Shown here: positions 29,883 through 33,081 of the stretch, piece by piece
How the letters are laid out: each line of letters begins with the position of its first letter
Numbering within the stretch: position 1 is the stretch's first letter
Source of the DNA: Longimicrobiales bacterium
GTDB taxonomy: Bacteria; Gemmatimonadota; Gemmatimonadetes; Longimicrobiales; Gaopeijiaceae
Assembly: GCA_965238005.1 (NCBI GenBank)
Contig: OZ250165.1
Location: forward strand, 1,600,001 to 1,664,000
Length of the DNA: 64,000 bases
Reading direction: 5' to 3'
Program-made: the position numbers and the translations under genes
The notes under the pieces: generated by a model
Database searches by the model: none
Told to the model about the DNA's origin: nothing
Seen by the model: the letters and a program-made list of their open reading frames with translations, nothing else

Positions 29883-31328
29883 ATGATGAACATATCCGCC
29901 CGACAATTCGTCGTCACACTACTCCCGCTGATCGCCATCGCTGTTCCGAACGAAGCGCGTGCGCAGAGCTCCATGCCGTCGCACGGCTTCAAGGTGGGCA
30001 GACCGTTCCCCACTTTGTCGCTCCCGTCCCTCGATGACGGGCGGCCCGCGTCTATCGCCGACTTCCGCGGTCAGAAGGTCATCCTGCACATCTTTGCATC
30101 TTGGTGAGCAGGCTGTAGGCGACACGTGCCCGGGTGGCACAACGCGACCGAGAGCCTCCAGGACATCGGCAGCGTACAGATGGTCGGGATCATCCAGGAG
30201 CAGCACCCCGACCGGGCCCGCCTCTTCATGCAGTGGAAGCAGATGGGATGGCCCATCCTTGTCGACTCGTACGATCTGCTGGAGGCACCTCACGTGCCGA
30301 TCTCCCTCGCTATCGACGAGAGCGGGGTGATCCGGAAGATCCTCCCAGCGATGCAGGAGGACGGCAGCATCACCGAGGACTTTCTAGAGGAGAGCTTTGG
30401 CTCCGCACGGGACGAGCCGTCGGCACCCACTCCTCCGCCGGACGTGGCTGCCCTCTATGCGCGAGCACAGTCCGAGGGCAGCGCGGAGGCGTGGAAGGCC
30501 TATGGCGACGCGATCGCTGTGTTGGGCGGGGCCGGCCGAGTGGACCAGGCTATTGACGCGTACGAGCGCGTGGTGAGCGAACAGCCTGAAGACGGCATGG
30601 CGCACTTCCGCCTGGGCGTCGCCTACCGTATGCGCTACGACTCGGACGGACGGCGCGACGGCGACTTCCAGAAGGCCGTCGACGAGTGGTCCGCCGCGCT
30701 CGAGATCGATCCCAACCAGTACATCTGGCGCAGACGCATCCAGCAGTACGGGCCCAGGCTCGACAAGCCCTACCCCTTCTACGACTGGGTCGTCACGGCC
30801 CGCGACGATATCCAGGCCTGGGGCGAAGAGCCTGCTCCACTCGCCGTTGAGCCTCGCGGCTCCGAGTTTGCAAGCCCAGAACGGGACTTCGTCGCCAGCC
30901 TGGACGCTCCCCCAGAGCCCGACCCTCTGGGTCGTGTGCTTCGCGACGAGGACCAGTTCATCGAAGTCGAGGCCGTCGCTGTCCCGGCCGGGATCGCTCC
31001 CGGCGTGGTCACCCGGCTGCACTTCTCGTTCCGACCGATCCAGCGCACGGAAGCACACTGGAACAACGAGGCCGAGGAGATGGTCCTCTGGCTCGATCCG
31101 CCCGAGGGATGGGAAGTCGAGACCAGGATGTACGGCTATCCGCTCCCTCCCGAGGTGGTGTCACTGGAGACTCGCGTGATCGAGGCTGAGATCCGTGCGC
31201 CCCAGGAGCTCGGCCGCGGCCCGATCACGATACCGGGATACGCCCTCTACTACGTCTGTGAGAACGTGAACGGGATCTGCATGTATAGGCGTCAGGATCT
31301 GGAGGTGGAGCTGCGGCCCAGGAGGTAG
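29883..31328 (+). CDS. Putative exported selenoprotein: TlpA/AhpC-type thioredoxin (UxxC) + TPR + DsbD-N-like domain, 481 aa with TGA read as Sec
   Basis: ORF 29883-30107 ends FASW-TGA and continues in frame as AGC into ORF 30126-31328; hairpin follows the TGA. Confidence 0.85.
30108..30156 (+). promoter_or_regulatory. Candidate bacterial SECIS element
   Basis: GTGCC-CGGGT-GGCAC apical hairpin (30126-30140), GCG/CGC and GGCT/AGCC lower pairs; loop about 24 nt after the TGA. Confidence 0.6.
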
Positions 31329-31918: not shown

Positions 31919-32770
31919 TCATGCTGCCGCTCCGTGGCGACGCTCGAAGTTGATGGGCGACAGCTGACCCAGTGCCGAGTGTCGCCTCCGGGGGTTGTAG
32001 AAGCCCTCGATGAAGTCGAACACGGCCATCTTCGCCTCGGCCTGGGTCCGGAAGCGCTGCCGGTCGAGTAGCTCGCACTCGAGCGTCGCGAAGAAGCTCT
32101 CGCACATCGCGTTGTCGTAGGCGTCGCCCACGGAGCCCATCGAGGGCCGCACACCGACATCGTTGCAGCGTAGGCCGAAGGCGATCGAGGTGTACTGGGT
32201 TCCCTGATCACTGTGATGGATGACGCATTCGGGCCGGCGCTGCCAGGTCGCCATGTTCAGCGCGTCCAGGACGAGCTCGGTGCGCAGGTGCGTAGCCATC
32301 GACCACCCGACCACCCGCCTGCTCCAGACGTCGAGCACAACCGCGAGGTACAAGAACCCCGCCCAGGTCGGGATGTAGGTGATGTCGGCCACCCACAACT
32401 GGTCTGGCCCGTCTGCGCTGAAGTCCCGCTCGATGAGATCCGGCGCGGGACGGGCGTCCTCGTTGCGCCTGGTCGTCTTCGGGCCGCGCCGCCTCCGGCT
32501 AGCTCCCACAATCTCGGCCTGCTTCATGAGCCGGCCCACCCGCTTCTCACCGACCCGCTCGCCAGCTTCCTTGAGGTCCGCGTAGATGCGGGGCCGGCCA
32601 TAGACCCTTCGGTTCTCGCGCCAGACCGTCTCGATCCGCTCTGTGAGCTCCTCATCTCGCTTCGCCCGAGCCGAAGGCTCGCGATCCAACCAGGCGTAGT
32701 AGCCGCTGGGGGAGAGATCCAGCACACGGCACATCGCCCGCACAGGGAAGTCGGCCTGATTCGTCTTCAT
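31919..32770 (-). CDS. IS3 transposase OrfB (DDE)
   Basis: WVADITY, HHSDQG, DNAMCESFF. Confidence 0.93.
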   Translation of the reverse strand: MKTNQADFPVRAMCRVLDLSPSGYYAWLDREPSARAKRDEELTERIETVWRENRRVYGRPRIYADLKEAGERVGEKRVGRLMKQAEIVGASRRRRGPKTTRRNEDARPAPDLIERDFSADGPDQLWVADITYIPTWAGFLYLAVVLDVWSRRVVGWSMATHLRTELVLDALNMATWQRRPECVIHHSDQGTQYTSIAFGLRCNDVGVRPSMGSVGDAYDNAMCESFFATLECELLDRQRFRTQAEAKMAVFDFIEGFYNPRRRHSALGQLSPINFERRHGAAA

Positions 32771-33081
32771 GAACTCGAACCCCGTTCCGGGATCGAGTTG
32801 CTCTCCCGAGCAAACCAGGCGGCGGCTTTTTTTAGAATCTCCTGCTCCATGCGCAGACGCTTGTTGTCACGCCGAAGCTGCCTGAGTTCCCCACGCTCCT
32901 CCGTCGTCAGCCCGTCACTGCGACGGCCTTCATCCAAGTCAGCTTGTTTGACCCAGTTCCGTATCGCCCCGTTTGAGGGCTCGAACTCCCGGGCCAGCTC
33001 CTCCACGGAGCGGCCCGACCTGACCAACTCGACCATCTGCCGCCGAAACTCCGGCGGGTACGGCGCATGTGTTCTTGGCAT
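32767..33081 (-). CDS. IS3 transposase OrfA
   Basis: YPPEFR HTH, ILKKAAAWF; A-AAA-AAG -1 frameshift signal at 32826-32833. Confidence 0.92.
   Translation of the reverse strand: MPRTHAPYPPEFRRQMVELVRSGRSVEELAREFEPSNGAIRNWVKQADLDEGRRSDGLTTEERGELRQLRRDNKRLRMEQEILKKAAAWFARESNSIPERGSSS

Follow-up and report, generated by a model that had tools for sequence, protein, structure and literature searches.

Related Redox Systems

The DsbD pathway relies on three domains acting in a defined order, namely an immunoglobulin (Ig)-like alpha domain (nDsbD), a membrane-embedded beta domain and a thioredoxin-fold gamma domain (cDsbD). CcdA, a short relative of DsbD, feeds ResA-type proteins directly. The present analysis concerns a gene at positions 29,883 to 31,328 of a window of 64,000 nucleotides, the whole stretch of DNA that was analysed, from a Longimicrobiales bacterium of the Gaopeijiaceae (Gemmatimonadota; GenBank assembly GCA_965238005.1, contig OZ250165.1, positions 1,600,001 to 1,664,000 of the forward strand). 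Its reading frame holds a single TGA that is very probably read as selenocysteine (Sec, U). With a probability of roughly 0.55, the product is an exported protein uniting a Sec-containing thioredoxin fold, tetratricopeptide repeats (TPR) and a DsbD_N-like domain, and supplies the soluble component of a reducing pathway resembling that of DsbD. Shared with DsbD are a thioredoxin-fold module and a sandwich of the DsbD_N type with a cysteine pair on the terminal hairpin, as well as the extracytoplasmic location. Unlike DsbD, the gene product has no membrane domain, its modules follow the order thioredoxin-TPR-alpha instead of alpha-beta-gamma, and Sec is found in its thioredoxin module, which is of the TlpA/ResA kind. 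The cysteine spacing also differs, being C-x6-C in the gene product and C-x3-4-C in the DsbD_N domains of the phylum. Membrane modules of the CcdA type are encoded in the host, where three such open reading frames (ORFs) have been detected.

A second group for comparison is formed by ResA, CcmG and TlpA, with which the gene product has in common the fold, the Pfam families, export and the position of the active-site motif. These are single-domain cysteine proteins, whereas the gene product adds Sec, the TPR region and the DsbD_N-like domain. The fusion of a thioredoxin fold to TPR is also found in the CnoX/YbbN family. CnoX is a cytoplasmic protein. From what could be consulted of one study, this family comprises redox-active CXXC members and inactive SXXC members, the latter acting as holdases, and the thioredoxin-TPR protein CcCnoX reduces DsbD-alpha in vitro (PMC6282202). 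The serine forms described below (W-S-x-x-C with TPR) parallel EcCnoX, but as far as that source goes, CnoX/YbbN proteins have thioredoxin and TPR domains only and an active site of the WCGPC type in place of Sec (PMC6282202).

Table 1 of a review from 2026 (PMC13188914) lists selenoproteins with a UxxC motif that belong to the Redoxin, Prx-like and TlpA-like (cd02966) families, and the portion consulted indicates that these share with the gene product the UxxC motif and the same Pfam and CDD families. That portion of the text contains none of the words "TPR", "tetratricopeptide", "multidomain" or "periplasm", and its sole mention of DsbD concerns another family (PMC13188914). The best NCBIfam match is the selenoprotein family NF041054 (WAxxUGC_long), which likewise covers a thioredoxin and TPR region and can presumably be equated with an entry of the same review, in so far as that source could be consulted. 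Membership in NF041054 was considered and rejected. The match, over residues 43-289, reaches 62.7 bits (56.9 in the genome search) against a cut-off of 300 bits, and it ends before the C-terminal domain in a model of 354 positions. The W-A-x-x-U-G-C motif was likewise rejected as a description of the family, which has [FW]-A-S-W-U-A-G-C, with U and C two residues apart. No member of NF041054 above the cut-off occurs in the host genome, and a literature search for "WAxxUGC" returned 0 papers. The first-pass annotation of this DNA, made from the sequence alone, had not recognised the architecture as one already described, and in agreement with this, no published description of a thioredoxin-TPR-DsbD_N-like selenoprotein was found, although the family may be catalogued under a generic name.

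The Gene and its In-Frame TGA

The features of the gene are as follows, with coordinates referring to the window and all of them on the forward (+) strand.

29883..31328, +: whole gene, 481 codons plus a TAG stop, the single in-frame TGA being read as Sec
29883..29963, +: probable Sec-type (secretory) signal peptide, residues 1-27, cleavage after ARA, read by eye
29994..30347, +: ResA/TlpA/CcmG-like thioredoxin-fold domain, about residues 38-155, with W-U75-A-G-C78 and V138-P139
30105..30107, +: putative UGA selenocysteine codon (residue 75), TGA at the aligned codon in 83/83 informative loci
30126..30140, +: hairpin GUGCC-CGGGU-GGCAC resembling a selenocysteine insertion sequence (SECIS), codons +7 to +11, V-P-G-W-H, pairs intact in 83/83 loci
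30444..30749, +: TPR helical region, about residues 188-289, from Pfam TPR matches and helices in the model
30711..30791, +: most conserved stretch of the family, PNQYIWRRRIQQYGPRLDKPYPFYDWV, residues 277-303, a linker with invariant or near-invariant columns in two alignments
30945..31325, +: C-terminal beta-sandwich, a probable remote DsbD_N homologue, about residues 355-481, from hhalign and the model
31257..31280, +: cysteine pair C459-x6-C466 in the last beta-hairpin (YYVCENVNGIC), each cysteine at least 90% conserved

In the mechanical ORF list the gene appears as two ORFs of the same frame, 29883..30107 (74 aa) and 30126..31328 (400 aa, with a GTG start), and reading through the TGA yields 481 residues with this one TGA. 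The codon context tct tgg TGA gca ggc tgt corresponds to S-W-stop-A-G-C, within FASW-U-AGC. The single frame split by TGA at 30105-30107, at the first position of a WCxxC motif, had been noticed in the first-pass annotation and is borne out by the sequence and the ORF list. The motifs that had been quoted from it (FPTLSLPSLD, FRGQKVILH, VPISLAIDESG and YYVCENVNGIC) are each present in the read-through protein. Where contigs assembled from other sequencing runs span this codon, they have TGA and not TGC or TGT. One of them (X4 record 19) shows four differences, all at other sites, and another (X1 record 2) shows zero differences, X1 being possibly the source sample. A single contig of an RNA library (X19, 30083-30261) extends just 22 nt to the left of the TGA; it may be DNA carry-over and was not taken as transcription.

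The TGA is conserved over a wide range of bacteria. When 300 further genomes of the phylum were searched, 3 had an orthologue, each with 1 TGA, and a scan of 185,579 species-representative genomes gave 461 matching stretches, the best 80 of which were retrieved. Among the 84 loci (L009-L092), TGA occupies the aligned codon in 83, while the remaining one (L056) ends at a contig end before the site; the 83 informative loci include the window itself (L009) and its close relatives L013-L016. They span Gemmatimonadota, Acidobacteriota, Verrucomicrobiota, Planctomycetota and other phyla, with a consensus around the codon of [FW]ASW-TGA-[AR]GC[RK]x[HR]V[PS]xW. The orthologues are colinear across the TGA in these 83 loci, and the 74 upstream codons are in frame and conserved. 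In protein databases the best 120 homologues are all 376-425 aa long, cover 78-84% of the query and start right after the TGA. An exhaustive search of representative proteins yielded 358 clusters with E <= 1e-30; among the best 150, the majority begin at query residues 81-116. The homologue comparison that had been proposed for this codon thus yielded TGA in all informative loci, and C, S, D or N in other homologues.

Bacterial SECIS elements are stem-loops that follow closely after the UGA and have a G in the apical loop. A hairpin with such a loop about 24 nt downstream had been reported for this gene and is real, its stem being formed by 30126-30130 and 30136-30140 and its loop, CGGGU, lying at 30131-30135. 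The stem starts 18 nt and the loop 23 nt downstream of the TGA. All 5 core pairs are formed in 83/83 loci with six changes only, all of them to G-U wobble. A sixth pair (C21-G37) is formed in 69/83, and pairs 19-40 and 18-41 in 64/83 and 33/83, respectively. As a control for constraint on the RNA, synonymous entropy was computed over 90 conserved codon columns of the gene with four- to six-fold degeneracy. The lowest values fall on Val+7 (GTG in 83/83, H = 0), Gly+9 (GGG in 70/74, 0.30) and Pro+8 (CCC in 76/82, 0.44), followed by Gly+2 with 0.76, while every remaining column has at least 1.26 bits. The fact that the lowest entropies occur at the hairpin codons indicates selection on the RNA, loop bases included, as expected for an element bound by SelB.

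The host genome, 4.84 Mb in one contig, encodes SelA, a SelB-type factor, SelD and tRNA-SeC(tca), and SelA was detected in 5/5 further carrier genomes tested. The selA, selB, selC and selD genes had been reported as missing from the window, and none was met in the part of it that was examined, but all four are found elsewhere in the genome, so that the Sec machinery is not lacking. In three other Sec genes of the host (selD and two peroxiredoxin-like genes), hairpins have apical loops 18-32 nt after the UGA. Taking into account the conservation of TGA in 83/83 loci, the constraint at the RNA level on the downstream hairpin and the full Sec machinery, TGA-30105 can be regarded with high confidence as a real Sec codon.

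Some further observations concern the selenoproteins of the host and of related genomes. The selD gene (L005, 578521-579441) is itself the selenoprotein form of SelD, with an in-frame TGA in HGAG-U-ASK followed by the hairpin AGCUCGG-CAUGU-CCGAGCU. A frame of the AhpC/TSA family at 3231467-3231868 on the reverse strand has one TGA in GHW-U-PYC, followed by the hairpin UCAGCUC-GGU-GAGCUGA, and is probably a further UxxC selenoprotein of this host. In the Bryobacterales orthologues L048, L068 and L082, U-R-G-C is found for U-A-G-C (CGG after the TGA), together with lipoprotein-like N-termini.

Domain Organization

A full-length AlphaFold2 model built from a 94-row alignment, with a predicted local distance difference test score (pLDDT) of 91.6 and a predicted TM score (pTM) of 0.89, brings the parts together in one chain. 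A disordered signal peptide is followed by a thioredoxin fold (about 40-155), TPR helices (188-289), the conserved linker and a beta-sandwich (360-479). Structure prediction had been suggested as a check in the first-pass annotation. The N-terminus has the features of a signal peptide, with basic residues, a hydrophobic core and ARA|QSS, and pLDDT is low over residues 1-33. Orthologue N-termini are hydrophobic as well, some of them with a lipobox-like L-x-x-C. Judging from these sequence features, export to the periplasm, with a lipid anchor in some relatives, is probable for the gene product.

The AhpC-TSA/Redoxin region comprises residues 37-151, with Pfam matches to AhpC-TSA (2.1e-10, 41.1 bits, cut-off 26) and Redoxin (4.1e-8, 33.6 bits, cut-off 26.6). 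Foldseek searches with the N-terminal domain retrieved ResA (3c73 and 1st9, E about 1e-8), TlpA (1jfu) and CcmG (1kng) with TMt values of 0.6-0.8, consistent with the TlpA/AhpC-type fold that had been proposed, and W-U-A-G-C precedes helix 76-88 in the model. TPR helices had also been predicted, and Pfam places TPR_14 (30.0 bits, cut-off 23.5), TPR_2 (29.4, cut-off 27) and TPR_11 (29.1, cut-off 26.8) within residues 202-280. A profile search of solved structures with the family alignment returned TPR proteins only, consensus-TPR included. In the linker that follows, R285, Q288, G290 and W302 are invariant, also in the non-Sec forms described below.

The C-terminal domain, folded alone, reaches a pLDDT of 96.5. 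In order to assess its relation to DsbD, a profile built from 20 genuine DsbD_N domains encoded within the phylum was compared with one of 36 C-terminal domains of the family. The hhalign comparison gave a probability of 89.9%, an E-value of 1.7e-6 and a score of 42.2 over 104 columns, covering template columns 5-120 of 122. Both invariant cysteines are matched, and the family segment AHWNNE is placed over the GWHxYWxNPGD segment of DsbD_N. The highest score among 99 scored column-shuffled templates was 21.0 (probability 4.7), and the reversed template scored 12.9 (probability 0.2). The C-terminal domain is thus supported as a remote homologue of DsbD_N, since the score lies far above those of the shuffles and both cysteines are aligned, and the resemblance to the DsbD N-domain, cysteine pair included, that had been pointed out in the first-pass annotation holds at this level, below what Pfam detects. 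In the ESM Atlas the nearest cluster with a Pfam name is also DsbD_N, on 28% of its members and with a score of 0.84, which constitutes a weak lead. A six-frame search of the host genome with PF11412 (DsbD_N) gave 0 matches at E <= 0.01.

Covariation of the Two Redox Centers

Homologues that have lost Sec were gathered through the search of representative proteins and through another one that started from a serine form. This resulted in 28 full-length homologues without TGA, mostly from Planctomycetota and Phycisphaerae records, and in an alignment of 370 collected homologues, each of at least 330 aa. Both C459 and C466 are kept in 334 of the 340 putative Sec forms, a class that was assigned from a start position after the TGA and not from DNA, and four of the six exceptions look C-terminally cut. 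In contrast, the complete C-terminal pair is missing from all 23 forms that have S, D or N at position 75, and of these P0288 and P0271 keep one cysteine each. Forms with cysteine at position 75 are very rare (n=5), the non-Sec residue being mostly serine; two of these, P0258 (CxxC) and P0282 (CxxS), keep both C-terminal cysteines. With 340 putative Sec forms against 5 Cys forms, cysteine barely substitutes for Sec in this family.

Two trees were inferred from residues 86-452 alone in order to keep them free of any influence from either redox centre. Both imply that the non-Sec label changed 6-7 times, and well-supported branches force at least 4 independent changes. The repeated joint loss of Sec and the cysteine pair is what a functional link between the two centres would predict and is not expected of a merely structural disulfide. 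From these sequence patterns, it is somewhat more probable than not that the two redox centres are functionally coupled.

The forms that have lost both centres deserve separate mention. P0204, P0260, P0272 and others have W-S-x-x-C, W-S-x-x-S or W-D-x-x-S and no C-terminal cysteine pair, and retain the TPR region and the conserved linker. These forms, from Planctomycetota and Phycisphaerae, may be redox-dead, CnoX-like periplasmic binders.

Proposed Mechanism and Alternatives

According to the model favoured here, SelB would decode UGA-75 as selenocysteine, aided by the hairpin 18 nt downstream, and a thioredoxin fold of the ResA/TlpA type with a U75-x-x-C78 active site would result. The TPR scaffold would link this Sec-thioredoxin to the DsbD_N-like beta-sandwich that carries the second redox pair, C459/C466, and a selenylsulfide or disulfide would be exchanged between the two centres through a presumed contact. 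A free-standing CcdA membrane protein is the putative donor that would reduce the Sec-thioredoxin module. The latter would then reduce the DsbD_N-like module, from which electrons could pass to envelope clients, perhaps recruited by the TPR region. The host has CcdA-type modules and no DsbD_N elsewhere. The most economical path leads from CcdA to U75/C78 and on to C459/C466, although this direction of electron flow can be put forward only tentatively. An intramolecular relay had been suggested in the first-pass annotation; the covariation of Sec with the C-terminal cysteine pair speaks for it, while the relay itself stays conjectural. A complex prediction with the thioredoxin and C-terminal domains of a natural Cys form (P0282) scored 0.00, which speaks neither for nor against binding. 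A redox cluster (L097:344-2130, 1348965-1350751) located about 250 kb before the window contains a TGA-bearing AhpC/TSA gene (TRG-U-TIQ), a second, AhpC/TSA-like ORF that runs in the opposite direction and the ORF with the genome's best match to CcdA/DsbD_TM, and is a candidate donor system for exported selenoproteins.

Several observations weigh against the reading of the gene product as a two-centre selenoprotein of a DsbD-like pathway. Selenium incorporation at UGA-75 is deduced from sequence. Pairing in the hairpin alone proves little because no compensatory covariation was found by RNAalifold and pair counts over the 83 loci, the stem being nearly invariant, and because the peptide HVPGWH is conserved and forces part of the hairpin conservation. 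In addition, the fold of the 81 nt after the TGA, taken as a single sequence, has no extra stability compared to shuffles (z = -0.05). As for the C-terminal domain, a Pfam search with residues 300-481 returned 0 families at E <= 10, DsbD_N included. DsbD-N is also absent among the top Foldseek and VIA-align matches listed for this domain. The evidence for coupling has its own weak points, since the putative Sec class was defined as described above, the trees are the product of quick searches only, and the putative Sec forms P0203 and P0332 each lack one C-terminal cysteine. Coupling is moreover not absolute, given that the Cys-at-75 forms P0297, P0300 and P0306 keep neither of the C-terminal cysteines. 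Finally, no conserved neighbouring gene was found, the largest cluster of flanking ORFs being present in 5/83 loci, with no hint of a donor or client.

Some of these points would fit an alternative in which the Sec-thioredoxin acts alone, for example in a role like that of ResA, CcmG or TlpA on apocytochromes or copper-centre proteins, with C459/C466 as a structural disulfide of an Ig-like binding domain and the TPR region and sandwich binding clients. Structural disulfides are frequent in exported beta-sandwiches. The fold searches list only generic Ig/MG-like sandwiches for the C-terminal domain (Foldseek TM about 0.45; best VIA-align row 9fyo, with Z 10.7, root mean square deviation 2.1 and 101 aligned), three of the Cys-at-75 forms exist without the C-terminal pair, and the contact between the two centres is inferred. 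A structural disulfide has no reason to vanish with Sec, however, and yet it is kept in 0/23 of the forms with neither Sec nor cysteine at position 75, which represent at least 4 independent lineages. Furthermore, C459/C466 aligns with the catalytic cysteine pair of DsbD_N, and this alternative is considered rather unlikely. The same two centres could also be used in the opposite direction, with the DsbD_N-like domain as the entry point, reduced by some other thioredoxin-fold protein, and the Sec domain as the exit, which would amount to a fused version of the step from nDsbD to CcmG. Proteins of the ResA/CcmG/TlpA kind are acceptors of nDsbD in E. coli, and the Sec domain does resemble them. 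The host, on the other hand, has CcdA-type proteins only, since neither full-length DsbD nor another DsbD_N was detected in its genome at E <= 0.01, and a gamma-like donor was not identified, which makes a reversed relay unlikely.

A different chemistry would apply if the protein were a thiol peroxidase, with Sec75 as the peroxidatic residue of an AhpC/TSA fold and the distant cysteine pair serving for resolution. AhpC-TSA is indeed the best Pfam match, and Sec-peroxiredoxins exist in the host genome, but the motif is the thioredoxin-type W-U-x-x-C at a helix start and not the T-x-x-U of the Sec-peroxiredoxins of this host, and the structural neighbours are the reductases ResA, TlpA and CcmG; this role therefore appears improbable. 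A last explanation, that the TGA is a genuine stop in a pseudogene or between two separate genes, agrees with the fact that gene callers and databases annotate the 400-aa part only. Nonetheless, it has to contend with 74 upstream codons whose frame and sequence are conserved across several phyla, in 83 loci, with a single thioredoxin fold that would be split at its active site when the non-Sec homologues are contiguous, and with a 400-aa product that would have neither a signal peptide nor an active site. This explanation is accordingly given very little weight.

If the two-centre reading is followed to its end, the protein could be seen as a "split, selenium-driven DsbD", in which a gamma-like thioredoxin and an alpha-like sandwich have been freed from the membrane module, fused through TPR and made obligately Sec-dependent. 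On loss of Sec, the residue would mostly become serine, the cysteine pair would decay, and a redox-dead, CnoX-like periplasmic binder would remain. This extended version is somewhat doubtful. Should it be true, the family would belong to the few selenoprotein families in which Sec forms predominate, and would lend itself to testing why Sec is used in place of cysteine.

Annotation and Genomic Context

Databases list the 461 stretches and hundreds of protein clusters of this family under "TPR" or "hypothetical" proteins that are cut short at the N-terminus, and since these records have neither the signal peptide nor the active site, an envelope redox enzyme becomes invisible to annotation. The gene is almost certainly a real, widespread and systematically mis-annotated exported selenoprotein. 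It is set apart by its DsbD_N-like second centre, by the way this centre is evolutionarily coupled to Sec, and by the fact that Sec forms dominate over cysteine forms. The rare non-Sec homologues, mostly with serine and with an apparent joint loss of the C-terminal cysteine pair, are new here. The presence of a Sec-thioredoxin and a DsbD_N-like second centre in one soluble protein suggests an envelope reducing pathway unlike that of DsbD, in phyla whose envelope redox biology has been little studied (Gemmatimonadota, Acidobacteriota, Verrucomicrobiota and Planctomycetota). A dominant Sec form, with losses that lead mostly to serine and are accompanied by decay of the partner cysteines, provides a concrete and testable system.

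In the window, the gene is surrounded by an Amdase/racemase-like gene, a sodium:solute symporter, an IS3-type transposase and an ACT-domain gene. The IS3-type insertion sequence lies directly downstream, at 31919-33081 on the reverse strand, and consists of two overlapping ORFs, HTH_Tnp_1 followed by an rve integrase core, the overlap being the usual frameshift arrangement. Elsewhere in the genome, at 1035994-1036069, the ARAGORN output includes a "tRNA-???" whose anticodon, "(ca)", has two bases, which may be an odd or degenerate tRNA-like call.

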